Shown piece after piece: positions 5,007 to 27,159 of a stretch of 64,000 nucleotides of DNA. The DNA comes from an uncultured Armatimonadetes bacterium (GTDB lineage Bacteria; Armatimonadota; Hebobacteria; Hebobacterales; Hebobacteraceae), in assembly GCA_963716175.1 (NCBI GenBank), contig OY970296.1, positions 2,944,001 to 3,008,000 of the forward strand, given 5' to 3'. The notes below the pieces were generated by a model that saw only the letters and a list, made by a program, of their open reading frames with translations, searched no databases and was not told the DNA's origin. Both the position numbers and the translations under genes were made by a program. Every line of letters begins with the position of its first letter. Within the stretch, counting starts at the first letter, position 1.

Positions 5007-5137
5007 CGTCCTCACCTCCGCGCAAACGTTTCTCCACACAGATCAACTCCCACGCTTCGCGTAGCACATTGCCAGCGATTAGTCAAGAGGCCGCGGACAC
5101 GCTTCATCTCCACCACCAGCGCGCGCCGCGTGCCCCG

Positions 5138-7003: not shown

Positions 7004-7172
7004 CCGTCGTCCCTCCGGCTGTGGCTGAAGGCGATGGCCATTGTCCTCAACCTGATTAGGGAGAAGGGCCCTCGCCCGGCCCGTATGCAGTGATGCAGCA
7101 AGAAGGCCGGCGTACTCTACCACGCGCCTCGCGAATCGGCAAGCGTTTGACGGGTGTGAGCCGCGACCTGGC

Positions 7173-8657
7173 CTAGGGCGGAGGCGCGACGACCCCCGCC
7201 TCCAGGTCCGTCACCTTCACCCACCACAGCACCGGCGCCTGGTCCGCGGCGATCTTCACGCTCTGCATCCCAGGGGCCCCGAGAGCCAGGAACCGCAGCG
7301 TCCAGCGCTGGCCCTGCTCCGTGGCGCCGATCCACTGCCACCCCCCGGGAGGCCCGTTCTGGATGCCGTCGTAGTCCGCCAGCGCCACCCCGTTGATCGC
7401 CACTTTCGTGTTGTCGTCGTCCCCGTCGCCGTTCTGGGTGGCGGCCCAGTTCTGCGCACACACCTGTACCGACAGCACCCCGCTGGCGGCGAAGCGATAC
7501 TCCTGCCACCAGTAGCCTGCCACGAGCTTGTTTATCGGATCCACCCAGTACGGTCCGCCCAGGGAGGCGCCGCCCGCTCCTATTGTGCGCCCTGGTGCAC
7601 GCTCGTTCGGGTGCACCTCCAGCACCGCCTTCGGCACCATCAGAATGCCCACGTGGACGACCTGGCCGTTCTCTGTATCCGCCACCCAGCAGGAGCCGTC
7701 AGTCGGGTTGACGGAGACGGACCAGGGGTTCCGGAACCCCCCGGTTCGCGACACCTCGCTGCCGCCTGCGGCCAGGTGCACGACCTGGTTGTTGCCCGTG
7801 GCCGCTACCCAGCAGGAGCCATCCGTGGCGTTGACCGAGACGCAATTGGCCATGGAGAACCCGCCTGCCCGCGACAGTTCGGTGGTGCCGTCCGGGGCCA
7901 GGTGGACGACCTGCGTCCCGTAGTCCACCACCCAGCAGGAGCTGTCTGTGGGGTTCACAGAGACAGAGTAGGGGTGGTAGAACCCGCTTGCGCGCGACAG
8001 TTCGGTGGTGCCGTCCGGGGCCAGGTGGACGACCTGGCCGTTGTCTGTGTCCGCCACCCAGCAGGAGCCGTCCGCCGGGTTGACGGAGACGGAGTAGGGA
8101 TTGTAGAACGTCGGAAACCCGGCGGTTCGCGACCACTCCGTGGTGCCGTCCGGGGCCAGGTGGACGACCTGGTTGTTGTTGGTGTCCGCGACCCAGCAGG
8201 AGCTATCGTTCGGGCTCACCGAGACGGATCGGGGGTCATTGAACGTCGGGTACCCCACCTGCGACGACACGGTGGTGCCATCGGAGGCCAGGTGGACCAC
8301 CCCACTGCCTGCGCTCCCCACCCAGCAGGAGCCGTCAGTGGGGTTGGACGAGACGGACCGCGGCTCTATGACGGCCTTCCAGGACAGGGAGTTGCCGTCT
8401 GCATCCACGTGGCCCACCTGCCAGGGAAACGTCTCGTAGCCATAGTCCGCTACCCAGCAGGAGCCATCTGACGGGTTGACGGAGACGGACACGGGATAAG
8501 GGAACCACGGGGTCGGCCACCCGGGGCTGCGCCACAACTCCGAGACCACCTCCGCTGCCTGGGCCATCGTGTTGAGGCCAAACATGGCCGGACAGGCCCA
8601 GAGCAATACCGTCGCCAGAAGGGGAACAAACAGACGTGACCGCGCTGACCCTCGCAT
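7173..8657 (-). CDS. Secreted NHL-like beta-propeller (7 repeats) + shared C-terminal domain
   Basis: Seven P.SVSVNP.DGSCWVAD..N.QVVHLA.DG repeats; signal peptide. Confidence 0.85.
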   Translation of the reverse strand: MRGSARSRLFVPLLATVLLWACPAMFGLNTMAQAAEVVSELWRSPGWPTPWFPYPVSVSVNPSDGSCWVADYGYETFPWQVGHVDADGNSLSWKAVIEPRSVSSNPTDGSCWVGSAGSGVVHLASDGTTVSSQVGYPTFNDPRSVSVSPNDSSCWVADTNNNQVVHLAPDGTTEWSRTAGFPTFYNPYSVSVNPADGSCWVADTDNGQVVHLAPDGTTELSRASGFYHPYSVSVNPTDSSCWVVDYGTQVVHLAPDGTTELSRAGGFSMANCVSVNATDGSCWVAATGNNQVVHLAAGGSEVSRTGGFRNPWSVSVNPTDGSCWVADTENGQVVHVGILMVPKAVLEVHPNERAPGRTIGAGGASLGGPYWVDPINKLVAGYWWQEYRFAASGVLSVQVCAQNWAATQNGDGDDDNTKVAINGVALADYDGIQNGPPGGWQWIGATEQGQRWTLRFLALGAPGMQSVKIAADQAPVLWWVKVTDLEAGVVAPPP

Positions 8658-8878
8658 CGCCCTACACCTCCCGTTACCGCGGAACTGCGCAGGTCGCCCC
8701 CCGCCCGGGGCCCTCGCCTTAACCCCCTCAGCAGGAGACTCAACCGGATTGGCGGTCTAGTGCCGTTGCCGGCCGCCTTCGCCTCCCCCCTTGCGATTCC
8801 TCTCTCTCGGCAAAGGCGTTTTCCCGCTTCTCTTGAGTTGGCCTGGCCGCCCCCGGCAGCCCAGGCGCGCCGCGCCTC

Positions 8879-12043: not shown

Positions 12044-15000
12044 ATGCGCGGTGTTTGGCTAGGAGCCGTTGTCCTCTTCCTGCTGGTTCTTTCCCCTGCT
12101 CTGGCTCTTGCGGACCTCTACGTCATCTCCGACTTCGAGGGCGAGGCCGACCTGGCGAATTGGGGGGCCTGGGGCTGCGTAGACCCTTGCCCGGATCCGG
12201 GGGCGCCCATGCCGGCGATCCCCTCCCTGTATGCAGGATACGCCACTGATGGCAGCTACAGCTGCCGCCTGGAGCTGCCGGCAGCGGACTATCCTGGCCT
12301 GTACCTGAGCACCTTTCCCATGAACGACTGGTCGGCCTACGATGTGGTCCGGCTGGATGTCTACAACCCCAACTCGTTCGCGGTGACCATCAATCTGGAG
12401 ATGGGTGACTCGCAGACCGGCTGGCAGAAGCGCTACGACTCGGGGCGAGCGATCATCCCAGGGCTCAATCACCTGGAGGTTGATCTCCACACTTTGGCCC
12501 GCAATGATGGCAGTGGGAACGTGGAGCCGGCGGACATCCAGCACTTCAGCTTCTGGTTCGCAGGTTACAGTTCGACCATCTTCGTCTACATGGACTACGT
12601 CCGCCTGGAGACGGTTCACGATGACCCTGGAGCCGACGCCGCCCGGAACATCTGGAAGTTCGACTTCGGCACCGCCACCTCACCCCGGTGGAGAGACTTC
12701 TTCCGGGTAACCGAGTCGGACAGCGACAACTACCCAGTGGATCCGACCACCATGCCTTCCGGATGGGTCTATAGCCAGGCGGATCAGATTCGTGTCAGCG
12801 GCGACTACGGCGGTCCGGATGACATGACCCGCGATTTCGTGCGGGGGATCCCCTGCAGCAACGTCTGTTACCCTGGTGACTCCGATCTCGACTTCCGGGT
12901 GGACGTGCCCAATGACAGCTACACGGTCTATGTGATTACCCGGTCGGGCAATCCCAGCGCCATGCCGGTGAGGAACTGGCAAGTCTGGGCGGAAGGGGCG
13001 CTCCAGGTGGATGTGCCGATGGATTCGGGCACCTTCTACAGCACTAGCTACTACTACCGGGGCATGGACGAGGACTACCCGCTGAGCCGATCCGCCTGGG
13101 AGCAGTTTGAAAACGCCAACTTCCCCGCCTATAGCTTCACCACTGGCGTCACCGACGGCAGCCTCGACCTGCATTTCGTCCAGTGCTGGCTCTATGCCCT
13201 GATAGTCTACCCCACCGACCTCGCGGGTGAGATGAGCACCCGGATCGCGGACTGGGAGGCCCAACGGCAGGTGCAGTTCGAGACCGCCTATTACATCAAC
13301 GCGCCGCAGGACCTCACTTTCACACCTACCGGCGAGGAGGCCCTGCGCGGCTACGCCGCCTGGCCGGTGGCGACCATGGATGCCTGCTACCCGGACACCC
13401 TGCCGCCCTCCCCGCGGCCCGCGTTGGCGCTCAGCGCTGCGGCCTCTCAGGGCGAGTACCGGTCGCTCAGCTTCGCCATTCGGCCCCTCAACGAGCTCAC
13501 CGATGTCTCCCTCCAGGTGAGCGACCTGAGCGACGGGCATGGGCATACTATCCCCAGCGCGGAGATCGAGCGGCGGCATGTGCGCTACATGGCGACTGCC
13601 GATAGCGAGGTTTTCGGTTCCGGAGTGCTGACCTGGAAGCCGCGGCTGCTGCAGAGCAACTTCCCCATCGCGGTTGCCAGCCAGGTGACCAAGCAGTTTT
13701 GGCTCACCGTACACGTACCGGTGGGCACTCCTGCCGGGACCTACGCCGGCACGGTCACGCTGAACACCTCGGCTCAGGCGCTGGTGCTGCCGCTGACGGT
13801 GGTAGTCTGGCCCTTTCAGTTGGACGCGGCGAACGACATGGCCTATGGCTGGTACTACATGTCGCCAGACCAACGCTACTGCTACGAGTTCTTTCCGGAT
13901 ATGGCGAGCGCGGGGGACGACATGCTCCGTCTCGACTTCGCGGATATGAGGAAGCACGGCTTCAACTCCCTTCAGTTCCCATGCCCGTGCTGCCTGGATA
14001 TCAACCCCACTAGCGGCCACGTGGGCACGCTGGACTTCACCGAGCCCAATCGCTACCTGGCGGCCATGGGTGATGCCGGCTTCGGCGGGGCCTGGAAGGG
14101 CCAGGTGGTGACGATCGACCTCGCCAACCGTATCCGTGAGTACAGCTCCGTGAGCGAGTTCGACACCAACTTCAACAACGCGTACAAGGATGTCATCGAG
14201 CAGGATCTTGGCCTGGGGAAATACAGTGGGCACTCCGCTGGTGATGTGCCTCTTGGACGAGCCCCGGGAGAGCGGGATCCAACCGTGGAACCGTAACTTC
14301 GCGGACACCATGCAGTACTGCGACCTCGCCCATCAGGTCGCCGGGGCCACCACTACCGTGACCGTGATGCGGGACGACCAAGAGGGGGTGGACTACACCC
14401 CGCTGGCGGATGCCCTGGACATCATGCAGACCCACCCCTGGTCGAACTCAGCCGGGTTGATCAGCGGTTCCCTCTCTCAGGGCAAGCCGATCTGGTTCTA
14501 CAACACCGGCGGCAACCTGCGCCTCGTATACGGTTTCTACCAGCTCAAGTGGCCCAGTGACGGCGCCTGGGAATGGCACTACGACTGGCTCGACAGCGAC
14601 GTCTTCGATCCTTTCCCCTACAGCCCGTTCAACAATCACTGGCGCTACACCTATCCCTCGTCGGCTGGCCCGGTGGCCACGCTCAAGTACGAGTGGGCGA
14701 GCCAGGGGATCACCGACTACCGCTACGCCGCCACCCTCGATCGCCTTTCCCGCGAGGCGCGGGCGACCGGCCTGCCTGCTTTCATCGCCTGGGCCGATGG
14801 CGCAGACGCGCTGCTGCAGTCGCTCAGAGATGACGTGCCCGAGTACCCGATCAGCGGCGGGGACTGGTACACTGGTCAGACTCAGCACTTCGCTGGCATC
14901 CCGGAGGGTCCGGGCTGTCTCACCATGGTCGAGCAGGCGCTAGATAGCTATCGGCAGCGCATCAGCGAGATGATCATGTCTCAGCCGACTGCTCAGCCGG

Positions 15001-15470
15001 CCGTGGTGCCCCAGGTTCTCCTCGAAGTCCACCCGAACGAGCGGGCACCGGGGCGCGCGGCGGGAGCGGGCGGCGCCTCTCTGGGCGGACCCTACTGGGT
15101 GGATCCCATAGGCAAGCTCGTCGCAGTCTACTGGTGGCAGGAGTACAAGTTCGCGGCCAGTGGGGTGCTGTGGGTGCAGGTATGTGCGCAGAACTGGACC
15201 GGCACCCAGAATGGCGACGGGGACGATGACAACACGAAAGTGGCGGTGAACGGGGTGGCGCTGGCGGACTACGATGGCATCCAGAATGGGCCTCCCGGGG
15301 GGTGGCAGTGGATCGGCGCCACGGAGGCGGGCCAGCGCTGGACGCTACGGTTCCTGGCCGTTGGCGCCCCTGGGATGCAGAGCGTGAAGATCGCCGCAGA
15401 CCAGGCGCCGGTGCTGTGGTGGGTGAAGGTGACGGACCTGGAGCCGCAGGTGATCAGCCCATTCGAGTAG
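12044..15470 (+). pseudogene. Secreted CBM-like + GH123/DUF4091-like glycoside hydrolase + shared C-terminal domain; frameshift near 14198 (real or assembly error)
   Basis: ORFs 11996-14296 and 14190-15470 overlap. Removing one G near 14198 joins KDVI to SRILAW. Motifs QFWLTVHVP..TPAGTYAG, LDEP, IWFYN and YEWASQGITDYRY. Confidence 0.7.
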
Positions 15471-15732
15471 CCTGGACTTCACGGCCCAGCGTGCTCTGCC
15501 GGCAGGGACGAAGGCTGCTCCATCTCTCAAGATCCGATGGGACGGCCTGCGCTTGTCAACAGGCAATGAGCCCCCTATGCTGTCCAGAGACTCATCTGCC
15601 ATCCAGACCCTGTCACAGCCCATCTGATGCTGTTCCGTGCACTCGCTGAGACCCCTAGTCTGGGAGACACAGAGGATGGGCGCGGAGGTCAGACGGGGTG
15701 CGGCGGTCATACAGCGGCGAGTGGTCCCGAGG

Positions 15733-16656
15733 CTAGCCTTCCTCATCGCCGGCTGGCCCGAGCATCCCCTCCAGCTTCTCCACCGCGGCCAGCTTGGTGC
15801 GTACATCGGAATGCAGGTATCTCGCCGTCGTCCCGATGTCTGCGTGCCCCAGCAGCTCCTGCACCGTGCGGATGTCGGCACCGGAGCGAATGAGGTGGGT
15901 GGCGAAGGTATGGCGTAGTCTGTGGGGGGTGATGCCTTTGCCCGCGAGCCCGGCTTTCCCGAGCGTGCGCTGGAGCATCCGGCTGATGGCTCTGCCGCAG
16001 ATGGGCTCTCCGAACTGACTCACGAACAACCGGTGGCTCTGAGTCTGGACTCGGTGGGGGAGGTACTGCTCGATGGCAGCCACGGCCTGATCGGCCAGAG
16101 GCACTACTCTCTCCTTCGCCCCCTTCCCGTGCACCAGGAGCTGCCGGTTCTCCAGGTCCAGATCCTCCAGGCTGATCTGGGCGATCTCGCTGCGCCGCAG
16201 GCCGGTGGAGAGCAGCAGCACCACCAAGCACTTATGCCAGGGGCGCTGGGCGGCCTCCAGCAACCGCTGGGCATCTGCTTCCGTGAGCGTCACCGGGACC
16301 TGCTGTTCGAGTCTGGGCAGAGGCAGCCTGCGGGCGGGATTGCCCGAGACATGGCCCATGTCCTGGAGGAAGCCAAACAAGGAGGACAACACCCAGAGCT
16401 TCCGTCTCACCGTCAGGGGTGCTCGCTGTGACAGGCTCACCGCGAACTGCATCACTTGCTGGCGCGTGATCTGACCGGGAGGGGGCAGCTGGCTCAGGCG
16501 CTGGGAGAGGAACTCCGAGAAGGCGCGCAAGTCGCGGCGGTAAGCCTTGACGGAGATAGGAGCGCAACTGCGATAGCCCTTCAGATACTCCAGGAACATC
16601 GCCACCGCCTCCTCAAAGGAGAGCGTGTGGGCCTCGGCGTCGTGGGCAGCGGTCAT
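15733..16656 (-). CDS. Tyrosine recombinase, XerC/D-like
   Basis: TGLRRSE (R), GKGAKER (K), HRLRHTFAT (HxxR), LLGH and TARY catalytic residues; N-terminal SAM-like domain. Confidence 0.95.
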   Translation of the reverse strand: MTAAHDAEAHTLSFEEAVAMFLEYLKGYRSCAPISVKAYRRDLRAFSEFLSQRLSQLPPPGQITRQQVMQFAVSLSQRAPLTVRRKLWVLSSLFGFLQDMGHVSGNPARRLPLPRLEQQVPVTLTEADAQRLLEAAQRPWHKCLVVLLLSTGLRRSEIAQISLEDLDLENRQLLVHGKGAKERVVPLADQAVAAIEQYLPHRVQTQSHRLFVSQFGEPICGRAISRMLQRTLGKAGLAGKGITPHRLRHTFATHLIRSGADIRTVQELLGHADIGTTARYLHSDVRTKLAAVEKLEGMLGPAGDEEG

Positions 16657-17618
16657 GGCTGTGCTCCCTCCTCTGGCTGCGGAACGCTCTCTCCGAGCAG
16701 CCCCGTCAGCCTCCCGACGGCCGCCAGCTTGGTCCGCACATCCGAGTGCAGGTAGCGGGCCGTCGTCCCCAGGTCGGCATGGCCCAGCAACTCCTGCACG
16801 GTGCGCACGTCCACGCCCTTGTGGATGAGCTGGGTGGCGAAGGTGTGGCGCAGCTTGTGAGGGGTAATCCCCTGGCCCGCCAGCCCCGCCTTCTCCAGGA
16901 TCTCATCGAGCGCCGCGTTGATCACGTGGCCTCGGAGGGGTTGCCCACGGGAGTTCACAAAGAGCCGGCGGCTCGGGGTGTGGGGCCGGTGGGGCAGGTA
17001 CTGCTGGATGGCCGCCACGGCCTGACGGGTGAGGGGGACGATGCGCTGCTTGGCTCCCTTTCCGTGCACCAGCAGCTGCCGGTTGGTCAGGTCCACGTCC
17101 TCCAGGCTGATCAGCACCGCTTCGCCTCTGCGGATGCCCGTCGCCAGCAGCAGCATGATGAGGCACCGATGCCAGGGCAGTTCGGCCGCCGCCAGCAGTT
17201 GCTGCGCCTGCTCCTCTGAGAGCGTCACCGGTATGTGCTGCTCCAGCTTCGGGAGCGGCAGCCTCTTGGCGGGATTGCCCTGGAGATAGCCCATATCCTG
17301 GAGGAAGCCGAAGAAGGAGGAGAGACAGGCCAACTTGCTGCGCACCGTGATCGGGGACCAGTGCGACAGGGAGACCGCGTACTGGATCACCAGCTGGCGC
17401 GTGATCGCAGCTGGAGCTGGCAGCGGCCCGGGCTGGGAGGCGAGGAACTGCTGGAAGTTGCGCAGGGTCGTGGCATAGGCTTGGACAGAGGCAGGAGCGC
17501 AACTGCGGTAGCTCCGCAGGTACTCCAGGAACATCGGCACCGCCTGCTCCAAGGGGAGCTCGTTCCCTGTGGAGGGCGGCGCGGCACGGGCCGCTTGGGC
17601 CTGGGCGAGAGTGGTCAT
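16653..17618 (-). CDS. Tyrosine recombinase, XerC/D-like (paralog of the adjacent gene)
   Basis: TGIRRGE, GKGAKQR, HKLRHTFAT, LLGH, TARY. RBS GAGGAGG before ATG 17618; 4-bp overlap with the downstream paralog. Confidence 0.95.
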   Translation of the reverse strand: MTTLAQAQAARAAPPSTGNELPLEQAVPMFLEYLRSYRSCAPASVQAYATTLRNFQQFLASQPGPLPAPAAITRQLVIQYAVSLSHWSPITVRSKLACLSSFFGFLQDMGYLQGNPAKRLPLPKLEQHIPVTLSEEQAQQLLAAAELPWHRCLIMLLLATGIRRGEAVLISLEDVDLTNRQLLVHGKGAKQRIVPLTRQAVAAIQQYLPHRPHTPSRRLFVNSRGQPLRGHVINAALDEILEKAGLAGQGITPHKLRHTFATQLIHKGVDVRTVQELLGHADLGTTARYLHSDVRTKLAAVGRLTGLLGESVPQPEEGAQP

Positions 17619-17815
17619 GCACGCCTCCTCTGGTGGATGGTTGCGGCATGACATGAATCACTTCAAGCGGCGAACAAGTCCAGGCCTTTGTGCAAGTATT
17701 CTGTGGGGTGGGCCCTAGTGCGGGTATTTTGTACCCCCTCGATTTCGGGCCAGGATGGCTCTAGGAGCCATGAAAAGGGTGGAGTGGGCCGATAAGCCGA
17801 GGTCGCGATTGAATG

Positions 17816-18045
17816 GTAGAGGATGAGTAGAGGTTAGGTGGAGGATTTCGGGCGCTGTGGGCGGTTTGCCGGCTTTCCGGGCACGACATCAAGTTGCGGC
17901 GAACGGGACTGAACGGCTGCAGGACGCCGCGTGAGAGGATTCCGCAGCGCCGCTTTCATGTCCGGGCGACTCCGCGCGAAGTAGAGGATCAGTAGAGGAT
18001 CGGTAGAGGTTGAGTAGGGGATCTGGGCCTCGCGGAGTAGAGGAT
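17816..18045 (+). repeat. Array of 9-bp direct repeats (GTAGAGGAT consensus) with 11-bp spacing
   Basis: Copies start at 17816, 17827, 17838; 17981, 17992, 18003, 18014; and 18037. Partial GAGAGGAT at 17933. Confidence 0.9.
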
Positions 18046-18319
18046 CGGCCAGGTCTCCGCCACCAAGGCCTCACCCAAGGCATCGTCACAAGCGGAGCAG
18101 CGTACAGATCCCGCGCTGGCATGATGATGCCGGCACCTGACGCCGACGGGCCGCAGCCGCGATCGGGCCGCTCGCATCGCCGGTCGGCTTCTGCCATCGC
18201 CTCCCAACTCGACGCGGTCGCTGTGCTCGCGCGGTGGCCTGAGCGACAGGCGGACGATCCGACCCAACCCTTCTCCCTCGCATGGGCGACCAGGATGCGG
18301 AGGTCGCACTAGGAGGCTC

Positions 18320-18349
18320 TTGACATCGGCTTGTGATATAGGCTATAGT
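18320..18349 (+). promoter_or_regulatory. Sigma70-like promoter of the HTH/terminase operon
   Basis: TTGACA-18 nt-TATAGT, 30 nt before ATG 18379. Confidence 0.65.
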
Positions 18350-18378
18350 GCATAAGACCCATACTCAGGGGTTCGGCA

Positions 18379-18906
18379 ATGACCGAGAAACAGATCGGCA
18401 AGAGGCTTCGCAAACTGCGCAAGAAGCGGCGTCTGCGCCAGCAGGATCTAGCGCTCGCGATTGAGGGCATCGACGCGGTGGTGGTGTCACGCTGGGAGAA
18501 CGGGGAGGGCCTGCGGCGCTTTATCCGCCACGCGCCCGAGCTCATGGTGCTGCTGGGCCCCGATGTCTGGCGGCTGGTGTACCAAGCAGCCGACACCATC
18601 CATCGCCGAGACGACTGGGAGTGGGTCGGCCCCATCGCCAAAGCGCTCACCGACCTCTTGCGAGAGAAGACTCTGCGCGTGCGGGCCCGGGCACGGGCAG
18701 AGAGATGGATGCTTCCTGACTTCCCCACTCTGGAGGAGGTGGCGGAGCGGCTCGGCAGGAAGGAACCGCTGTCGTTGATGGACCAGCTCCACCTCTCGGA
18801 CGCCATCTGGTGCACGGACATCACCCGGGGGTGGCAGTTGACGGAGCAGCAACGTAGGGCGGCCACCCGCGCCCACCGGCGCACGACCAGGCCGCCGGAT
18901 CTCTAG
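18379..18906 (+). CDS. XRE-family HTH protein
   Basis: IGKRLRKLRKKRRLRQQDLA...VVSRWENG. Confidence 0.75.
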   Translation: MTEKQIGKRLRKLRKKRRLRQQDLALAIEGIDAVVVSRWENGEGLRRFIRHAPELMVLLGPDVWRLVYQAADTIHRRDDWEWVGPIAKALTDLLREKTLRVRARARAERWMLPDFPTLEEVAERLGRKEPLSLMDQLHLSDAIWCTDITRGWQLTEQQRRAATRAHRRTTRPPDL

Positions 18907-18925
18907 CTCATATCAGCCGTCGGTC

Positions 18926-19573
18926 ATGGCGGGAGCGAGGCAGCACATGAGCGGCGATCAAAGCACGGAGCAGGGCCTCAGATCATGGGATCGCCAGCTT
19001 GGTGAGAGCGAGCTGGCCCACCAGGCCTTCCTGGCATACCGGGATTCCGGGATTCCCCGGAACCTCGCCGCTACCGCGCGAGCGCTGGGCAAGCACGAAG
19101 GCCAGCTCTATCGCTGGAAGGATCGGCACGGGTGGGGCTACCGCCTGCTGGCCTGGGACGCGGCGCAGGGGAAGGCAGCGGAGGAGACGGCGCAGCGGGA
19201 ATGGGAGAGGCGCCGGCGCCGCTGGAGCCAGGCCGGAGATCACGTCCTGCAGGCCCTGCTGAGCAGACTGCTGGGCCTCATCACCACCGATCCCGAGACA
19301 GGCAAGGCGGCGCTGGATGGGAGAGTCAAGCTCGAACTCGGGCTGGGCATCGGGGAGTTCATCATGAAGTTCCAGCGCTGGCTGGCGGAGGCCCCTGCCG
19401 GCCCCGACGGGCCACCGGAGGCGGGCCCCGAGCTTCGCCGGATGGCGAGCGTGGAGCTGGAGAAGCTGAAACAACTGGCACTGGAGCAAGACACCGACCA
19501 CGAGGAGGCAGGAGGCGATGGCAAGCCGAAGTCGAGGCGCAAGCGCAGCGAGAGCGCGCAGACGCGCTCCTGA
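18926..19573 (+). CDS. Putative terminase small subunit (phage HTH protein)
   Basis: GESELAHQAFLAYRD...LAATARALGK...YRWKDRHGW..R..AWD motif; helical C-terminus; located upstream of TerL. Confidence 0.6.
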   Translation: MAGARQHMSGDQSTEQGLRSWDRQLGESELAHQAFLAYRDSGIPRNLAATARALGKHEGQLYRWKDRHGWGYRLLAWDAAQGKAAEETAQREWERRRRRWSQAGDHVLQALLSRLLGLITTDPETGKAALDGRVKLELGLGIGEFIMKFQRWLAEAPAGPDGPPEAGPELRRMASVELEKLKQLALEQDTDHEEAGGDGKPKSRRKRSESAQTRS

Positions 19574-20816
19574 GGTTCGCGACACGCGGGAGCTGCAGAT
19601 CGAGCACGTCCCGATCGACCGGCTGCGTCCCTGGCCGGGCAACCCGCGCGTCATGTCGGAGCCGGAGATGGCGAAGCTTATCCGGTCCATTGAGCAGTTC
19701 GGCCTGGTCGAGCCGCTGGTGGTGAGGAGACAGGATGACACCGTCATCGGCGGCCATCAGCGACTGGCAGCGGTGAAAGCGCGGGGCATGGCGCGCGTGC
19801 CTGTGGTCTACGTGGATGTTTCGGAGGCCCAGGCCAAGGCCCTGAACTTGGCGCTGAACAAGATCCAGGGCGAATGGGACCTGCCCAAGCTCGGGGAGCT
19901 GCTCGAGGAACTGCGCGATCTCCCCGATCTGGATGAGACGCTGTCGGGCTTCGATGACCGGGAGATCGAGACTGTCCTGGCAGAACTGGAGCGCCAGCAA
20001 CTCCCGGCGCCATGGGAGGAGAGCTTCGATGTGGCCGCGGAGATGCTGCAGGCACAGCGGCACGCGGCGCCGACGCGAGTGAAGCTGGGCGATATCTGGC
20101 AGCTCGGCCGGCACCAGCTCTATTGCGGTGACAGCCTCGCGCCCGGCGCGCTCGAGCGATTACTGGACGGAAGCAGGGCCGACGTGGTGCTGACCGACCC
20201 GCCGTACGGCGTCGGGTACCGATCAACTCTGGCCAAGCGCGGACGCAGGAAGCAGGGGATCGCCAATGACGCGGTGGGCGACTTCGACGCATTCCTCGAA
20301 AGAGCACTGCCGACTATCCAGTCGGTGATGAAGCGCGGCGGGGTGATGTACTGGTTTGCGGGAGGTGGGGGAGGAGAGCCCGTGCTGGCGAAGGCGCTGC
20401 TCGCGATCGCGCAGCACTTCACCCTGCTCAACACCATCGCCTGGGACAAGGTCGATCCGGGCTTGGGATGGCGTTGGCGCCGGAGCTGGGAGGCCGTCAT
20501 CGAGGCGAGCGTGGGAAAGCCGCGCGTCTGGAATGGCGGTACTGAGATGCGCAATGTGCTGCGCTTTGCCAAGGCAATCCCCCGGGCCGACGACCATCCC
20601 ACCCCCAAGCCCGTCGCGCTCCTCGAAGAGATCATCAAGGCGGCCGCACCCGGCCGCGGGGTGATCCTCGATCCGTTCGCCGGTTCGGGCGCCACCTTGA
20701 TCGCGGCGGAGCGGACGGGACGGACCTGCTCGGCCGCGGAGTTAGAACCCAGGTACTGCGACATCGTGGTTGCCCGATGGGAGGCACTGACGGGAGCTTG
20801 CGCCCAGCGCGGGTGA
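19518..20816 (+). CDS. ParB-like N-terminal domain fused to an N6/N4 DNA methyltransferase
   Basis: LRPWPGNPR...IGGHQRL (ParB-N); TDPPY, HPTPKPV and DPFAGSG (beta-class amino-methyltransferase). Confidence 0.92.
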   Translation: MASRSRGASAARARRRAPEVRDTRELQIEHVPIDRLRPWPGNPRVMSEPEMAKLIRSIEQFGLVEPLVVRRQDDTVIGGHQRLAAVKARGMARVPVVYVDVSEAQAKALNLALNKIQGEWDLPKLGELLEELRDLPDLDETLSGFDDREIETVLAELERQQLPAPWEESFDVAAEMLQAQRHAAPTRVKLGDIWQLGRHQLYCGDSLAPGALERLLDGSRADVVLTDPPYGVGYRSTLAKRGRRKQGIANDAVGDFDAFLERALPTIQSVMKRGGVMYWFAGGGGGEPVLAKALLAIAQHFTLLNTIAWDKVDPGLGWRWRRSWEAVIEASVGKPRVWNGGTEMRNVLRFAKAIPRADDHPTPKPVALLEEIIKAAAPGRGVILDPFAGSGATLIAAERTGRTCSAAELEPRYCDIVVARWEALTGACAQRG

Positions 20817-20854
20817 GCGGTCATTGGGTTTCCGACGCACCCGAGGTGAAGGTG

Positions 20855-22429
20855 ATGGGACGAACGAAGGACAGTCGCAGCCCGTACCAGCACGCGCTCG
20901 AGGAGATCGATCGGGTGCTGGACCGACGCGCTGATCCGATCGGCTGGATTGAGAGCAACCTGTGGCTGCGCACCAAGCAAAGGACAGTATCACCTTTTCT
21001 CCTGAACCCCGCCCAGCGGGACTACTACCGCAGGCGCACCACCCGCGACGTCGTGCTCAAAGGGAGGCAGATCGGTTGCAGCACCATGTGCTGCGCGTTG
21101 CTGTTCGCGGACACGGTGCTGCAGCCCAACGTCCACTCGGCGATCGTCGCCCACGACTTCGCCTCCAGTAAGCGGCTCTTTCAGATCATCCACCGGTTCT
21201 GGGAGCTGCTGCCCGAGCAGGAGCGGGCTGAGATCGGCAAGCCCCGCATCTACAGCCAGGAGGAGCTCTACTGGCCTTCCCTTGGCAGCCGCCTTTTCGT
21301 GGGGACAGCCGGCTCCCGCAGCTTCGGCCGCAGCCAAACCTTCGACAGCGTGCTGTGTTCCGAATTTGCCCGCTGGCCGGAACCGGAGGCGGCGCTCATC
21401 TCGCTCACCGAGGCGGTGCCCGCGACCGGCCGCATCATCGTCGAGTCGACCCCAGAGGGCATGGGGAATCCCTTTCACGAGCTGTGGATCCGGGCCAAAG
21501 CCGGGGAGAACGGATACCGGCCGCACTTTTATGCCTGGTGGTGGGATCTGGGATACCGGCTGGCGGGGCCGCCGCCGGAGGACATCACAGACGAGGAAGC
21601 CCAGCTTATGCGCGCCCATAACCTGGATGAGGATCAGCTGCGGTGGCGCCGCGCCAAGATGCGAGAGCTGAGAGATCGGTTCGCGCAGGAGTATCCGGAA
21701 AGCGATCTTACCTGCTTTCTGGCCAGCAACCGCGGCTGCTTCGATCCCCACGCGCTGGCCGGGGCCGGCCTGCGGATCGCGGGTGAGCCGCAGCCCGAGC
21801 AGATTCCCACTCTGCCTGATCGCTCCGGGCAGTCATTGGCAATCCCACCCGCTCGCCTCTTCATCTGGCGCCGCCCCGAAGCCGGGCGCAGCTACGTGAT
21901 GGGGGCCGACATCGGGGAAGGGCTGGACCACAGTGACCCCTCGGCCGCCTGCGTGCTCGATGAGAAGAGTGGTGAGCAGGTGGCGGAGTTGCAGGGGCGG
22001 GTCTCTCCCGAGCGCTTCGCCCGCTTGCTGGATGCGCTGGGCCGCTACTACCATGACGCCCACCTGGCGGTGGAGAGGAACGGTCACGGCCACTCGACTC
22101 TGAGCACGCTGCTGCACACCACGCAGTATCCGGCCCTCTACCACCATAGTGACTACGATCAGTCAGGGCGGCAAGAGCGCCGGCCGGGCTGGCCCACCAA
22201 TCAGAAGACCAAGCCCATCATGATCGACGATCTCGCGGAGGCGATCGCGGGAGGGCAGTTGCTGATTCATTCCGCGGAGTTGTTGGACGAATGCCGCAGC
22301 TTCGTCACCACGGACACCGGCGCCACCGAGGCACAGCCCGGCAGGCACGATGACCGGGTTATAGCGGCCGCCATCGCGTGGCAGGTGCGCAAGCGACCCA
22401 GGCCGGTGTTTCGGATCGCGAGGGCATGA
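20855..22429 (+). CDS. Terminase large subunit
   Basis: LNPAQ, Walker A KGRQIGCST, Walker B VLCSE, coupling motif ESTP; RNase-H-like GADIGEG, VERN and HDDRVIAAAIA. Confidence 0.9.
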   Translation: MGRTKDSRSPYQHALEEIDRVLDRRADPIGWIESNLWLRTKQRTVSPFLLNPAQRDYYRRRTTRDVVLKGRQIGCSTMCCALLFADTVLQPNVHSAIVAHDFASSKRLFQIIHRFWELLPEQERAEIGKPRIYSQEELYWPSLGSRLFVGTAGSRSFGRSQTFDSVLCSEFARWPEPEAALISLTEAVPATGRIIVESTPEGMGNPFHELWIRAKAGENGYRPHFYAWWWDLGYRLAGPPPEDITDEEAQLMRAHNLDEDQLRWRRAKMRELRDRFAQEYPESDLTCFLASNRGCFDPHALAGAGLRIAGEPQPEQIPTLPDRSGQSLAIPPARLFIWRRPEAGRSYVMGADIGEGLDHSDPSAACVLDEKSGEQVAELQGRVSPERFARLLDALGRYYHDAHLAVERNGHGHSTLSTLLHTTQYPALYHHSDYDQSGRQERRPGWPTNQKTKPIMIDDLAEAIAGGQLLIHSAELLDECRSFVTTDTGATEAQPGRHDDRVIAAAIAWQVRKRPRPVFRIARA

Positions 22430-22690
22430 CGCACCGAGGATCGCGCATCGGCCCGCTGCTTGCGCGGGGCGGTCCGCATGCGGGCACTAGAGCCGAATTC
22501 AGTCCCCAATCTACGGTCGCATCGCTATGCGTCAACCGCGGTAAGGACTGGCAACGACCGATCCCTTTTTCGCCTTGCTGAAACAGACGTTTGTGGCGCG
22601 AGTCGGAGTATCGGCCGAGCCCTGAGGCCCCGGGGCCGGTTCCACCGGCGGGTGACATGCACACTCGGCCCCAGGCTGAGAAGTCAGGCT

Positions 22691-24106
22691 TCACTGTGCC
22701 ACCACCAGGAGGCGCGCCGCCTGCGCCACAAAGTGCTCCACGGAGACAACACAGAAGCCGGTTGCAGCCAGCAGGTCCCGCAACTCCTCCTCCGTGTACT
22801 GCTTCGAATGTTCACTGATGTCACGCGCCACACCAGGGGCAAACTCTGGTATCTCCCGCCAGTGACACTCTCGTCGCGTCGGCAGGTCAGCCGGGGGCGG
22901 AGCATACTCCGCCGCGTCGGGGGTGACGAGAACGAGGGTGCCACCTTCGACCAGATGCCTCCGCAACCACCGGAGAGGCCCGGCAGGCGCGAAGGCGAGG
23001 TGCTCCAGCGTCTCAGAGAATAGGACAAGATCGCAGGGGCCGACATCTATCTCGAAAAGTCGCGGGTCGTCCAGATCGGCCCGCAGGAGAGGGAAACGCC
23101 ACTCCAGTTGCACCTCGCGCGGCGTACGGTCGTCAATGTCGAGCGCCACGACTTCCCATCCCAGGCGCGAGAGGAAAACGGCCTCCGTCCCGAACTTGGC
23201 CCCGGCCACCAACGCCCGTCCAGCTGGCAGGGGCACGATCTTCTCCGCGCAGGCCACCTTCCACCCCAGGGAGTAGGCATCGTACTGCTCACTTGGCGTG
23301 TACCGCGCCACCTCCGCCATGCACTCCCGGTACAACGCCGTGATCTCCTCGCGGGTAATCGGGTAAGAGTCCGCCTTCCGCGGCAGCCGCGACGGCCGCG
23401 GTCCAGGCGAGAAGCCCGGTCCCACGGCGCCCCCTCCGTGCGACGGCAGCACGACCTGCTCGGGCCGTCCCGGCACCCCGAGCCCCTCCCACGTCCACAC
23501 CCCCGGCGAGCACAGCACCCACAGGCCATCGGCCAGCCGCTCCTGCGTGCTGCAGCGATGAGATGGCTCCCCGGAGAGGAAGGCCTCGTCGCCGCACCAC
23601 TCGCCCCACCGGCAGAGGAGCCGTGGCCGCGGATCGTCTGGAGTGGCAAGGCTCTCATCCACTGGCATGATGAAGGGAGTGAAGGGGTCGCCGGTGAGCT
23701 CGTGGGCAAGCCCCAGAAGCCTCGGCGGGAACTCCTCAGGCCACACCCGCGCCGCGAGCTCCCATACCCACCGCACCCAAGCGAGAGGGCCGAAGTCCCG
23801 GGCTGGTGCGCGGTTCACGATTCGCCCCGGCCCCTCCATCCAGGCCGCGTTCCTGCGGAGGTCCACGCGTAACTCGTCCCTCTGGCGGCGCAAGTGCTGC
23901 AGTCGCGCCGCGACCATGCCTGCATCCTCGGCGGCACCCGCCGCCCGCGCTATCCGCGTTAGACTGCCAGGGGTGAGGGGATCGGTCTGTTCCTCCATTC
24001 CAACGTAGGCGGCAATAGCGAGAGACACCACCGCGTCAGCCGCCTGCTCCGGCGTAGCGTCCACCACCCCGCGCATCTCCGGCGGCAGATCCTCACCGCG
24101 CATCAT
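22691..24106 (-). CDS. Unknown N-terminal region + class I SAM methyltransferase domain
   Basis: ALVAGAKFG, VVALDID, LFSETLEHL, LVLVTPD, HSKQYTEEEL. Confidence 0.7.
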   Translation of the reverse strand: MMRGEDLPPEMRGVVDATPEQAADAVVSLAIAAYVGMEEQTDPLTPGSLTRIARAAGAAEDAGMVAARLQHLRRQRDELRVDLRRNAAWMEGPGRIVNRAPARDFGPLAWVRWVWELAARVWPEEFPPRLLGLAHELTGDPFTPFIMPVDESLATPDDPRPRLLCRWGEWCGDEAFLSGEPSHRCSTQERLADGLWVLCSPGVWTWEGLGVPGRPEQVVLPSHGGGAVGPGFSPGPRPSRLPRKADSYPITREEITALYRECMAEVARYTPSEQYDAYSLGWKVACAEKIVPLPAGRALVAGAKFGTEAVFLSRLGWEVVALDIDDRTPREVQLEWRFPLLRADLDDPRLFEIDVGPCDLVLFSETLEHLAFAPAGPLRWLRRHLVEGGTLVLVTPDAAEYAPPPADLPTRRECHWREIPEFAPGVARDISEHSKQYTEEELRDLLAATGFCVVSVEHFVAQAARLLVVAQ

Positions 24107-24291
24107 GCTGGTTCCCCCCTCCGCGTCCTGTCGTGGTCGGCCGGGTAGTCATCGCGCATGCCCTTCGGCGGCTCCACGGGCAGCAGGCCGGCCTTCCATG
24201 CCTGCTCGCGTACGTAGGCCCTGACGTCGGCATAGCTCTCCCCAGCAAGGCCATTCAGCGCCTCCACGCGACTGTGCGTAGTCAGCGCCAA
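24103..24291 (-). CDS. Small hypothetical protein
   Basis: 62-aa ORF with an ATGA overlap into the next gene. Confidence 0.35.
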   Translation of the reverse strand: MALTTHSRVEALNGLAGESYADVRAYVREQAWKAGLLPVEPPKGMRDDYPADHDRTRRGEPA

Positions 24292-24409
24292 TAGGGATGT
24301 GTCTCATCTGAGACCGTGACCTGCCCCCGTAAGTGATACCACCCGCTAAGTGAGTCTCATAGCGGAGGGGGGTGCTCCCCGTTTCTGTACCACCTGGAAT
24401 GAGACTTCT

Positions 24410-25252
24410 TCAGTTCAAAACAGTAAGCGCATGTTTGCTGACCGCAGGGGTCAGCGCCGCGGCCGAGGCCCGCGCGAAGTCCTCCGGCGACAGCTCTCCG
24501 AGCGCGCTGTGCGGCCGCCCCGCATTGTAGTGCTTCCGCCAGGCTTCGATCCTCTCCTGCGCATCCGCCACCGATAGGAACCAATGCTCGTTCAGGCATT
24601 CCTGTCGGAAGCGGCTGTTGAACGCCTCAATGAGCGCATTGTCCTGGGGCTTTCCGGGGCGGCTGAAGTCCAGCGTCACTCCGTTCCAGTACGCCCATTG
24701 GTCCATCGCTACCGACGTGAACTCAGTGCCGTTGTCCACGCGGATGCTGCGGGGCGCACCCCGCTGCCGGATCACCTCGTTGAGCACCTCCACCACGTCG
24801 TCGCCCTTCAGGCTGACTCCCACCTTCAGTGCGAGACACTCACGGCTGTAGTTGTCCACCAGCGTCAGAATCCGAATCCATCGTCCCGAATACAACTGGT
24901 CCGACATGAAGTCCATGCTCCAGGTTTCGTTGGTCTGTTGAGCGGCCGCGATCCTCACCCTCCGCGCCGCGCTCACCCGTCTCCTGGGGCGTCTGCGGCG
25001 CAATCCCAGCCCTTCCTCCCGGTAGAGCCGGAACACCAGCTTGTGGTTGGCCTCCCAGCCCTCTCTCCGCAACAGCAGTCCGAGCCGCCTATATCCGTAG
25101 CTCGGCCGAGCTCCAGCCAGGTCCCGCAACCTTCCCCTCAAGTCATCCCGCCTGTTCGCCAGGCTCCGGTAGCGGTGGCTCGCGCGAGGGACGTGCAACA
25201 CCGCACAGGCCCGACGCTCGCTTACCCCGTAGCTCGCCACCAGCGATTGCAC
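24410..25252 (-). CDS. IS3 transposase OrfB (DDE), expressed by -1 frameshift
   Basis: YGYRR, WSMDF, VDNGTEF, IEAFNSRFRQECLN, YNAGRPHSAL. Confidence 0.95.
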   Translation of the reverse strand: MQSLVASYGVSERRACAVLHVPRASHRYRSLANRRDDLRGRLRDLAGARPSYGYRRLGLLLRREGWEANHKLVFRLYREEGLGLRRRRPRRRVSAARRVRIAAAQQTNETWSMDFMSDQLYSGRWIRILTLVDNYSRECLALKVGVSLKGDDVVEVLNEVIRQRGAPRSIRVDNGTEFTSVAMDQWAYWNGVTLDFSRPGKPQDNALIEAFNSRFRQECLNEHWFLSVADAQERIEAWRKHYNAGRPHSALGELSPEDFARASAAALTPAVSKHALTVLN

Positions 25253-25275
25253 CAGCTCCCGCCGGCGAACAGGCG

Positions 25276-25542
25276 TCAGGCTTTTTTTCGCAGCACCTCC
25301 TGCAGCATCGCCTTATCCAGCGTCAGGTCAGCCACCAGCTGCCGCAGCCGGCGGTTCTCATCTTCCACCTGCCGCAGCCGCCTGATCTCGGACACTCCGA
25401 GCCCCGCGTACCGCCGCTTCCAGCGGTAGAACGTCTGCTCCGCCACCCCCATCTTCCGGCAGATCTCCGCCACCGCGGTGCCCGCCTCCGCCTGCTGCAA
25501 TGCGAACGCGATCTGGGGTTCTGTGTACCGCTTCCGCTGCAT
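25276..25542 (-). CDS. IS3 transposase OrfA
   Basis: RYTEPQI...ICRKMGVAEQTFYRWK...ENRRLRQLVADL. Ends in the slippery A7G motif (25281-25288). Confidence 0.93.
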   Translation of the reverse strand: MQRKRYTEPQIAFALQQAEAGTAVAEICRKMGVAEQTFYRWKRRYAGLGVSEIRRLRQVEDENRRLRQLVADLTLDKAMLQEVLRKKA

Positions 25543-25696
25543 CTCAATACCCTCCCGGAATGAGTTTCCTTCCGCTTGCTTCCTCTCATTCTGGGTGGAT
25601 CAGAAAACGGGGATCAGGCCCCAGGACTCCATCTATGACATTACACCTGGACTCGTTCTTGGGGGCAAGGCCATCCGGTTGACGCGCCGGATCGTC

Positions 25697-26821
25697 TCAG
25701 TAGCGAAGTGCCAGTGAGATTAGCAGCTGATTCCTCCTGTCGGCTGGGAGGGCACGATCATACCCGTTCTCGTACCGGATCCTGAGGAAGACGTCATCCC
25801 GCGACGGCAGGAACCAGTAATCCACCGTGGCCGTGAGCAGGTTCTTGAGCTTCCTCCCCTGCGGGTCCCCAGAGAACGTGTACCATCCCGATGACTCGGC
25901 GTACAGGGAAACGGTCGGCTGATCGGTAATGGCGTCGGCGTGGCCCCAGGCCATATCGCGCACGGTGGCCACCCAGTCCGCTCCACCCTCCGCCTCCGTT
26001 ACCGTGTCCAGGAAGACCTGCTGCAACTGGGTACGGCGGTTCGCCGGGATCTGCCCGATCTTCCCGGCCAGGTCTTGCGCCTGGGTGTAGGTGGGCGCCT
26101 GGCTCAGGAACACCCCGGCGATCTCCGCGGCAGTCTTCCCAACGTCCGCGTTCTTCCGCCACCCGAACGCCTTGCCGAGGAAGGAACGATAGGTGAGCAG
26201 CTCACTTCCGGAGATCGTGGTCGTGCCAGTGTCCGACTCCTGCCGCTGCGCGTTCACGCCAAACACAATCCAGTTCGAGGCTTGACAGCGAGCCGCCCCC
26301 GGAATCCGCATCGGGGGCGATTCCAGGCCGATGGCGTATTGCAGAATCCCCTTCTCGGGATCACCCGCGATCAGGGCGGTTCCCCGCAACTGGAGCCTCT
26401 CCAGACCCCTGAGAGTCAACGGCTGCACGCCCTCAGCCTCCAGCAGCGACCCGCCAATGGTGGTGGTGCCCTTCTCAAACCGCAGGCTGAGCCGGTTTCG
26501 GTCCCCGGTGCCGTTGGGCACTGCTGGGGCCAGCAGATCGATCCCGTGTGCGTACTTGAACGGCGTCCCCGTGCTATGCACTAACTGGCCATGGTAGCTG
26601 ACCCGCGAGAAGGATTCATCCGCTTGCCCGGATGTGAAGTCGAAGCGATAGCCGGCGTCGATCTCGACAGCACTGATGGGGGCGGGGTTCTGCGCCTCTA
26701 CAGCGAGGTCGGCGGCCGTAGCGGCACTGCACGGCCAGGCAGAGAGTAATACCGCGACCAGCGAGACGCAGAGCGTCAGGCCGGCGTGACCGGTGCGTTG
26801 CGTTCCTGTTCGGTATGACAT
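25697..26821 (-). CDS. Secreted hypothetical protein, possibly an outer-membrane beta-barrel
   Basis: Signal peptide (...AWPCSA); amphipathic strands; aromatic-ending C-terminus LLISLALRY. Confidence 0.55.
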   Translation of the reverse strand: MSYRTGTQRTGHAGLTLCVSLVAVLLSAWPCSAATAADLAVEAQNPAPISAVEIDAGYRFDFTSGQADESFSRVSYHGQLVHSTGTPFKYAHGIDLLAPAVPNGTGDRNRLSLRFEKGTTTIGGSLLEAEGVQPLTLRGLERLQLRGTALIAGDPEKGILQYAIGLESPPMRIPGAARCQASNWIVFGVNAQRQESDTGTTTISGSELLTYRSFLGKAFGWRKNADVGKTAAEIAGVFLSQAPTYTQAQDLAGKIGQIPANRRTQLQQVFLDTVTEAEGGADWVATVRDMAWGHADAITDQPTVSLYAESSGWYTFSGDPQGRKLKNLLTATVDYWFLPSRDDVFLRIRYENGYDRALPADRRNQLLISLALRY

Positions 26822-27159
26822 CACGCCTCCTCGGCGATCGCCTGCAGCGTTCCCACAGTGCTGGTGCCGTCCCACCCCCCTGGGTCAACGGCCTCAGGCT
26901 TGCCCAGTCTGGTGACGATGCTTTGCCAAAGAGATCGCCGTTCGCTGCTGTTTGGCTTCTCCGGGTCGATGTAGAAGCGCCGGAGAATCAGCCCACCCAC
27001 GTAGGCGAACTCGACTGTGCTTGCGCCCACGGGTTCTCTGACATAGGCCTGCACCCGGGCGGCAGCAGCATCGCCGCCTGATGAGCCGGTTTCCGCCTTG
27101 AGGGCATCAAGCACGTGCTTCCGGTTGATTCGTCGCTGCTGTTTGGTCAATCCTGCCAT
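26821..27159 (-). CDS. Hypothetical protein
   Basis: RBS GAGGAG before ATG 27159; TGATG coupling to the next gene. Confidence 0.6.
   Translation of the reverse strand: MAGLTKQQRRINRKHVLDALKAETGSSGGDAAAARVQAYVREPVGASTVEFAYVGGLILRRFYIDPEKPNSSERRSLWQSIVTRLGKPEAVDPGGWDGTSTVGTLQAIAEEA

Follow-up and report, generated by a model that had tools for sequence, protein, structure and literature searches.

A small element with a complete terminase and no head genes in an Armatimonadota genome, a candidate terminase-only phage satellite

Known phage satellites redirect the terminase of their helper by means of their own small terminase subunit (TerS), as the PICI do, or build their own heads, as the cfPICI do. 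According to PMC10085698, the PICI combine int and a regulator with a primase-replicase, a gene for capsid morphogenesis and terS, to which the cfPICI add capsid, adaptor, connector and terL genes, reaching 9-11 core components and being the one satellite family with both terL and terS. The PICMI of Vibrionaceae are about 6 kb long, integrate next to fis, contain int, alpA and a primase, carry no genes for packaging and have their DNA packaged in concatemeric form (PMC10803314, partial text, in which the word 'terminase' occurs 0 times), and EPIPs (PMC12822802) and VEIMEs (PMC9618062) are presented without the large terminase subunit (TerL) in the available sections of those papers. Here we describe a locus with both terminase subunits and no head genes, located in a 64,000-nucleotide stretch (G000:C1:2944001-3008000, the whole of which is called the window) of the single-contig genome (4.56 Mb, about 65% GC) of an uncultured Armatimonadetes bacterium. 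It appears to belong to a family of small integrative elements of about 6.7-7.3 kb, formed by one or two recombinases, a variable regulator, TerS, a fusion of ParB and methyltransferase domains (ParB-methyltransferase) and TerL. That this is a mobile, selected and headless terminase element is well supported by the sequence comparisons presented below, and we give a probability of roughly 0.5 to the reading that it is a terminase-only phage satellite. In literature searches aimed at such elements, which did not extend to subscription-only journals, we found no description of an element with TerS and TerL and without head genes. The headless form recurs in many sediment bacteria, and the element therefore most likely represents an undescribed kind of phage-dependent hitchhiker.

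The copy of the element in the window (copy A) extends from 15714 to about 22604, with a recombinase pair on the reverse strand and an operon on the forward strand. The operon opens with an Xre-type helix-turn-helix (HTH) protein of 175 amino acids (aa; 18379-18906, +; HTH_3, E 2.7e-06), continues with a TerS-like protein of 215 aa (18926-19573, +) and a ParB_N plus N6_N4 methyltransferase fusion of 432 aa (19518-20816, +; PF02195, PF01555 and phrog_498, E 8e-108) whose start at 19518 is preceded by GGAGG, and closes with a TerL of 524 aa (20855-22429, +). The TerL frame is open from 20777, but the ATG at 20855 is the most likely start, in view of the Shine-Dalgarno-like AGGTGAAGG and of the length of 524 aa, which is that of the homologues. 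A sigma-70-type promoter-like site (TTGACA-18-TATAGT, 18320-18349, +) with 11/12 consensus matches precedes the operon, and the promoter scan of the region returned 3 promoter-like sites against 0.6 expected in shuffles. The first-pass annotation of this DNA, made from the sequence alone, had named two recombinases, repeats, HTH, TerS-like, ParB-methyltransferase and TerL genes, a near-consensus promoter and a convergent methyltransferase, and all of them were confirmed, the named genes lying where it had placed them; its description of an overlapping operon is true of TerS and ParB-methyltransferase, which overlap by 56 nucleotides (nt), and not of the other two junctions, which are gaps of 19 and 38 nt. 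Its statement that no portal, capsid or tail gene appears in the remaining 41 kb was also borne out, as no such family was found among the 47 larger open reading frames (ORFs) of the window with Pfam or among 14 ORFs with PHROGs. The gene set of the element contains no recognisable replication, capsid, portal, tail or lysis gene, and no primase-replicase domain was matched in any of the six element proteins (Pfam, PHROGs and NCBIfam).

The nuclease domain of TerL was recognised by Terminase_6C (PF17289) with 32.2 bits, above the cut-off of 22.6, and its ATPase domain by phrog_2 (E 9.9e-29 over residues 44-542). In 23 aligned sequences the nuclease residues D378, E433 and D525/D526 are invariant, as is C194-S195-E196, while K95, R97, Q98 and G100 of a Walker A-like K-x-RQ-x-G motif are nearly invariant and EST-x-x-G is invariant or nearly so. 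The Walker B aspartate is replaced by serine throughout this TerL clade, and by motif equivalence the ATPase motifs align to KARQVG and YLDEF of the TerL of a resident prophage. In comparisons across lineages, the ParB-methyltransferase ranks with the best conserved of the element's proteins, at 66-74% identity among most lineages and 46-51% to L150.

The TerS-like protein matches no Pfam or NCBIfam family, and the match to phrog_6299 ('terminase small subunit', a name that derives from annotation and not from an assay) spans 88 of its residues with an E value of 1.1e-11. Its relatives are numerous: 105 clusters were retrieved by word search, labelled 'hypothetical' or 'transposase-like', and a TerS profile collected 11198 representatives at E<=0.001, of which 4316 pass E<=1e-10; 42/43 sampled relatives matched phrog_6299, many of them over almost the full profile. 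The AlphaFold model (pLDDT 77) consists of an N-terminal HTH, a 48-residue helix, a beta-hairpin, two further helices and a disordered acidic tail. No solved TerS fold was matched by Foldseek in the PDB at E<=0.001, a PDB profile search gave nothing relevant, and the best VIA Z score of the model, 7.1, was to unrelated helical proteins. Most of its neighbours in the ESM Atlas are of viral origin, and a single Terminase_5 cluster appears among them, at rank 30. Among all the loci that we fetched, the TerS family profile matches only those with the gene order of the element and no portal-linked phage.

The same gene order recurs elsewhere. About 200 close cluster representatives of TerL exist in metagenomes, and the few that are labelled come from metagenome-assembled genomes (MAGs) of Armatimonadota, Anaerolineae and Dehalococcoidia. 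Profile-guided scans gave 80 loci from genomes, 80 from metagenomes and the 78 best from IMG/VR, whose genes were called by a greedy longest-ORF rule; many of these contigs are short, and the metagenomic loci are not independent of each other. Single-protein scans were much poorer, returning no relatives from genome contigs, where the relatives came from the profile scan, and only relatives at <=40% identity from IMG/VR. By tblastn, TerS, ParB-methyltransferase (47-77% identity) and TerL are syntenic in about 30 metagenomic or MAG loci, with a divergent recombinase upstream of the module in L101, L105 and L121. The distribution is patchy, with the element in 6/41 related genomes, several of them with more than one copy. 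In metagenomic contigs, second ParB-methyltransferase or TerL fragments lie a few kb from complete elements (L105 8110-8451, L127 20173-20634 and L134 2710-3516), and the elements thus seem to cluster there as they do in this genome.

What follows TerL separates these loci into two kinds. We compared the genes within about 4.5 kb of TerL in 26 loci plus L020, all with a TerL at least 47% identical and at least 2.5 kb of downstream sequence. A portal or capsid gene was found in 0/12 syntenic loci (L020, L102, L105, L119, L124, L127, L140, L146, L147, L149, L150 and L177), whose downstream genes are unlike each other (glycosyltransferases, an ABC transporter, Cas6, CBASS, IS21 and DUF families), against 8/14 non-syntenic loci with SPP1_portal after TerL, mostly then followed by Phage_min_cap2 (L107, L112, L113, L128, L133, L138, L144 and L145); a ninth non-syntenic locus, L143, has a tail-length-type protein downstream. 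The difference has a one-sided hypergeometric p of about 0.002, which has to be read knowing that the loci are not independent and that the classes were drawn after looking at them; L130, with a weak ParB-methyltransferase and an IS110 downstream, is ambiguous and stands outside both counts. The portal-linked TerLs of the non-syntenic loci are 49-60% identical to that of the element, and more distant ones (34-40%), those of Acidobacteriaceae included, belong to ordinary phages; in Marinomonas, Endozoicomonas and Brevibacillus loci the portal comes directly after TerL. The first-pass annotation had taken portal and capsid genes right behind this TerL in relatives as the mark of a simple deletion; such genes do occur, only in relatives without the TerS and ParB-methyltransferase synteny, whereas the syntenic relatives all end at TerL.

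Some of these phage loci have features of their own. We considered a set of Acidobacteriaceae loci in which a HipA_2 kinase follows TerL as headless, and rejected this reading because in L035, the one of them inspected further, a portal appears two genes later. HipA_2 stands directly after TerL in 8 Acidobacteriaceae loci scanned (L033-L099), followed in L035 (11600-14754) by DUF3037 and the portal, and it looks like a conserved moron of the packaging module. In addition, the phage-type TerL is interrupted near residues 255-280 by about 450-500 nt in L128, L148, L167, L189 and L194, and broken with almost no gap in the same region in L143 and L196; Hint/intein domains occur in minor capsid proteins near such TerLs (L144 and L145), and the larger TerL inserts are probably inteins.

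The genome itself contains, according to tblastn with the module proteins, four copies, all in one orientation. Copy A (2959736-2966426) is accompanied by copy B (2841564-2848713), with a recombinase pair 93% identical to that of copy A and with TerS, ParB-methyltransferase and TerL at 28%, 70% and 60%; by copy C (2875842-2882220), with a single recombinase (57-63%) and the three proteins at 36%, 66% and 59%; and by copy D (3032173-3034091), which consists of the recombinase pair alone (92-95%), with no TerS, ParB-methyltransferase or TerL. The three terminase copies, whose TerLs are 58-60% identical, lie within 125 kb, and the four copies within 193 kb. The TerL frames of A, B and C are open, and behind none of them is there a portal. 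The recombinase block of 2.1 kb shares 92-93% nucleotide identity among A, B and D by blastn while the terminase genes share 68-72%, and from this we conclude that the elements are mosaic.

The limits of the element were obtained by comparison. On the left, the identity block of A, B and D ends at 15714-15732, 1-20 nt beyond the intB stop (blastn and alignment). On the right, each genome copy was compared by blastn with the metagenomic sequences closest to it. Homology ends at the TerL stop in copy A (22425-22429) and in copy C (2882210), and in copy B somewhere from about 30 nt upstream to 290 nt downstream of that stop; beyond these points the contigs of the relatives continue into unrelated DNA. 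These limits define a unit from recombinase to TerL of about 6.7-7.3 kb and leave the Rhs and glycosyltransferase genes outside. It had been proposed that the island could mobilise this Rhs and glycosyltransferase cargo, a proposal that is not supported: homology stops at the TerL stop or at most about 290 nt later and the flanks differ between loci, which makes these genes neighbours and not cargo. They could be moved only through lateral transduction.

Around copy B there is a perfect inverted repeat of 16 bp, of which one arm, TTCTCGCGCCACAAAC, stands 31 nt outside the recombinase stop and the other, GTTTGTGGCGCGAGAA, 111 nt beyond the end of TerL. The left arm is also found at copy D, and copy A has the right one without the left, in the form of the 16-mer GTTTGTGGCGCGAG at 22589-22604 (+), 160 nt after TerL, which is a candidate core half-site or element end. 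The right motif is also present 92-139 nt after TerL in the syntenic L126, L149 and L151, and 229 nt after it in L137. Circularisation would bring the two repeats opposite each other with a short spacer between them, an arrangement like that of the core sites of tyrosine recombinases. IS110-family transposases lie directly behind the GTTTGTGGCGCGAGAAG motif 3' of TerL in copy B (2848824-2850320), L130 and L070, and a remnant resembling the start of such an insertion sequence (IS) recurs after copy C, where there is otherwise no recognisable gene; this suggests site-specific targeting of the 3' end of the element by these IS. On the opposite side of copy A, the 1.6 kb stretch at 14000-15607 is 96% identical to positions 148328-149935 of the genome, and the C-terminal ~150 aa of the ORF at 14190-15470 recur in several upstream genes (4449-9349) with 72-90% amino acid and up to 93% nucleotide identity. 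The left flank of copy A may have been rearranged, which would explain the absent left inverted repeat.

The recombinases, intB (15733-16656, -; 307 aa; Phage_integrase PF00589, E 2.5e-47; TIGR02224, 229 bits) and intA (16653-17654, -; 333 aa; Phage_integrase, E 5.9e-44), are XerC/D-like tyrosine recombinases. They are paralogues with 65% amino acid identity, visible as a 935-nt register repeat (D1-D3), and both retain the catalytic R, K, HxxR, H and Y. Against the XerC/XerD-type model TIGR02224 the pair scores 229 and 218 bits, below the equivalog cut-off of 335, so that they do not qualify as chromosomal XerC/XerD. Multiple recombinase copies exist in the genome, 92-95% identical to each other. 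When contig depths were summed in two sediment metagenomes, coverage of the recombinase genes (15703-17904) was 5-20x that of TerS-TerL; the recombinase block is far more common than the terminase part, or is shared more broadly.

A maximum-likelihood tree of 57 TerLs (quick search, LG+G4) places copies A, B and C in three separate clades, each with 100% SH-aLRT and each made up entirely of syntenic loci: copy A groups with L100, L105 and L108, copy B with L146, L149, L151 and L147, and copy C with L101 and L104. The TerL of copy B is 89% identical to that of L151. The portal-linked phages within the group form one nested set of 17. Pairwise dN/dS within lineages (NG86) was 0.14-0.32 for TerL (9 pairs), 0.09-0.21 for ParB-methyltransferase (4 pairs) and 0.125 for TerS (1 pair). 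Such low values, together with the conserved ATPase and nuclease residues, indicate that TerL is not evolving neutrally, contrary to one of the outcomes that the first-pass annotation had considered. The headless architecture that it proposed is recurrent, conserved and under purifying selection, a real unit and not a local deletion.

A 724-nt intergenic region separates the recombinases from the operon and bears repeats. It contains a conserved non-coding box (17780-17812, +), within which the 17-mer GGGCCGATAAGCCGAGG (17786-17802) lies about 130 nt upstream of the recombinase start. In the genome this 17-mer is found only at the four recombinase-adjacent sites, it is identical in 9 loci of different lineages (including L100, L101, L105, L121, L150 and L177), and it is unchanged even among loci whose proteins share only 50-75% identity. 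Directly 3' of the box are three repeats in an 11-bp phase (17816-17848, +), which in copy A read GTAGAGGATGA / GTAGAGGTTAG / GTGGAGGATTT and whose position is conserved while their sequence is lineage-specific: GTAGAGG in lineage A, GTGGAGG in lineage B, GTAGCGG in lineage C, GTGTCAG in L100 and L105, and GTACCGG in L101. The same 11-nt GTAGAGGAT units reappear about 130 nt downstream of this triplet as a second cluster of about 5 copies (17980-18050, +; TRF period 11, 4.0 copies, score 60), several of which contain GATC. With a constant part and a specificity part, the box and repeats look like a recognition site, and we regard them as a candidate packaging (pac) site. The position of the HTH gene, further downstream, is a variable regulator slot, and other lineages hold there, between recombinase and TerS, a divergent ORF of 345-388 aa (L017 7048-8085, -; L020 437-1528, -; L123, L127, L142, L151 and L177), with a weak zf-CGNR match below the Pfam cut-off in 3/8 of these ORFs (L017, L123 and L151) and no Pfam match in the other 5/8.

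Helper dependence, excision, packaging and interference with a helper are inferred in the way of life that we consider most likely. The cycle would begin with the growth, in the carrier cell, of a helper phage that has an SPP1-type portal. The terminase of the element would then recognise a site on the element, for which the box and the 11-bp-phased repeats are the candidate, make its cut there and drive element DNA, in concatemers or along with adjacent DNA, into helper procapsids, in competition with the helper's own terminase; in the next cell, the recombinases would integrate the delivered DNA. That this amounts to a new satellite class, one that carries a complete packaging enzyme (TerS, TerL and a ParB-nuclease/methylase accessory) and a recombinase but neither virion nor replication genes, docks on foreign portals and steals whole procapsids, with several incompatible lineages of different repeat specificity coexisting in one genome and, given a size far below that of a head, with neighbouring chromosomal DNA perhaps also transferred at high frequency, is a more tentative proposal, to which we give somewhat less credit than to the satellite reading itself.

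Head genes do exist elsewhere in the genome, where the first-pass annotation had suggested looking for them. A prophage-like cluster at 1.4758-1.481 Mb encodes a TerL (24% identical over 173 aa to that of the element), an SPP1-type portal and a major head protein, and is a possible helper. Near 3.22 Mb there is also a capsid island (G000:C1:3216900-3224183, equivalent to L182 7900-15183) with a large serine recombinase, an HK97-type major head protein, two small ORFs and a distant ParB-methyltransferase, in which the queries used gave no terminase match; from its gene content it appears to be a capsid-bearing counterpart of the capsid-less element. Either locus could be relevant to a possible helper relationship.

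Several observations weigh against the satellite reading. The element has no replication gene that would account for the filling of a phage head by 7 kb of DNA. Identity between the resident portal and one that adjoins a related TerL is only 26% over 214 aa. Repeat similarity and TerS identity are uncorrelated (Spearman rho -0.07, 28 pairs), and a pairing of TerS with the repeats is accordingly not supported, while the correlation with ParB-methyltransferase (rho 0.52) is loose, driven by one divergent locus and drawn from non-independent pairs. The inverted-repeat end motif is present in only 2/3 genome copies and 3/28 syntenic loci, and in none of copies A, B and C do the two flanks share a direct repeat of at least 13 nt that could serve as attL/attR. 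Parts of the stretch are contained in 20 public sediment, wetland or peat DNA runs (best share 0.33) and in no listed RNA run, and the contigs of 4 runs gave no bridge over an empty site or a circular junction, although they comprise short pieces only and are uninformative either way. The syntenic type is absent from the best 78 IMG/VR loci of the profile scan. Finally, the AU test rejects a single clade of 14 confirmed headless TerLs (against 13 portal-linked ones) with p 0.0004, the groups having been named after the tree was seen. This rejection arises because L130 and L150 group with phages, and some headless loci may be decayed phages; either TerL moved between phages and elements more than once or L130 and L150 are such decayed phages.

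It is conceivable, though we think it rather improbable, that the element is a defence or interference module on a mobile platform, in which a decoy terminase damages or mis-packages invader DNA, the methyltransferase marks self and spread occurs otherwise. Copies are found beside CBASS (L147), Cas6 and a KAP NTPase (L127) and a DUF4143 ATPase (L130), known satellites join transfer with interference (PMC9618062, in its available part), and the purifying selection is equally compatible with this function. However, with PADLOC 2.0 only generic MTase_II models matched, and only the ParB-methyltransferase, with 0 matches for TerS, TerL, HTH and the recombinases; the neighbouring genes are highly diverse and for the most part unrelated to defence, and a conserved box with repeats on the element itself suggests self-recognition. 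Of nearly the same low probability is an in-situ packaging platform of the gene transfer agent or lateral transduction kind, which would send neighbouring glycosyltransferase and Rhs DNA into particles whose head and tail genes are encoded elsewhere, by headful packaging from its own site. The lack of a replication gene, a size far below phage head capacity, the presence of head genes elsewhere in the genome and the location of four equally oriented copies within 193 kb of a polysaccharide- and Rhs-rich region fit this idea, but flanks that are completely different between loci do not, and the recombinases and the patchy distribution point to a selfish element and not to a host-controlled system. 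Both are live alternatives, and neither is mutually exclusive with the satellite reading.

The loci could also be independent remnants of SPP1-like prophages that lost everything behind TerL, a view that we hold to be unlikely. In its favour are the TerL relatives at 49-60% identity that belong to phages with portal and minor capsid genes, the grouping of L130 and L150 with such phages, and the IS elements behind TerL in copy B, L020 and L130. Independent decay would nevertheless have had to stop at the same break point in three lineages of one genome and in 12/12 testable syntenic loci, leaving intact frames with dN/dS well below 1. Moreover, the TerS family is undetected in any portal-linked locus, a recombinase lies directly upstream wherever the upstream DNA is informative, and the copies of this genome and of metagenomes, at 72-91% amino acid identity, share content and end point. 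The recurrent headless form, the homology limits and the dN/dS values largely exclude a prophage remnant for this lineage, although it had been offered as an alternative by the first-pass annotation. Least probable is an integron- or transposon-like unit in which a terminase-like nuclease/ATPase processes transposition DNA, the box is the recombination site and the hairpin-rich 3' end is attC-like, because, in spite of the homology of the solo-recombinase copy D breaking off exactly at the box, the perfect inverted repeat of 16 bp around copy B, the IS110-family insertion at the conserved 3' motif and weak integron-integrase profile matches, the recombinases reach only 124 bits, in two stretches, against the integron-type integrase TIGR02249 (cut-off 265 bits), the unit has its own promoter and four genes, and TerL retains a complete set of phage-type ATPase and nuclease motifs and falls within the phage TerLs in the tree.

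A convergent ORF with a class-I methyltransferase domain (22691-24106, -; domain match) follows the TerL of copy A, with an IS3-type transposase beyond it, and the rest of the surroundings includes glycosyltransferases, glycoside hydrolases and two Rhs-repeat proteins. There is no tRNA or tmRNA gene in the window, and Rfam gave no match at E<=0.1 in 14000-27000.

If the satellite reading is true, the portal-terminase interface alone can be parasitised, with the whole motor supplied and nothing else, and this would explain 'orphan' terminase genes in genomes and MAGs that are missed or miscalled by virus-detection tools. The element would also offer a compact natural system for the study of packaging specificity, with a conserved box, variable phased repeats and three lineages in one cell. 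The family seems to be frequent among bacteria of sediments and wetlands, from which hardly any satellites have been described.

Compared with described systems, the element shares with the SPP1-portal-type phages of the same habitats (L107, L112, L113, L128, L133, L138, L144 and L145) a TerL of 49-60% identity and, in several of them, a ParB-methyltransferase upstream of it, but in those phages portal and minor capsid genes come after TerL, the ParB-methyltransferase is only 27-29% identical and no TerS of the phrog_6299 type was detected. It resembles the PICMI in its size (about 6 kb in the PICMI), its few genes and its lack of capsid remodelling, and concatemer packaging offers a way in which a full-size head could be filled; nevertheless, it carries the opposite set, packaging genes without replication, with no match to alpA or primase, and its neighbours are glycoside hydrolase and glycosyltransferase genes. 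Like the cfPICI it encodes both terS and terL, and unlike them it has no capsid, head-tail adaptor or connector, either among the 47 ORFs of the window or downstream of the 12 syntenic loci. With the PICI, such as the SaPIs, it has in common an integrase at its end, a divergent regulator, its own TerS and a small, tail-less constitution, with integrase, regulator and terS all present. However, PICI carry a primase-replicase and usually capsid-size genes and use the TerL of the helper, while the element does none of this and adds instead its own TerL and the ParB-methyltransferase.

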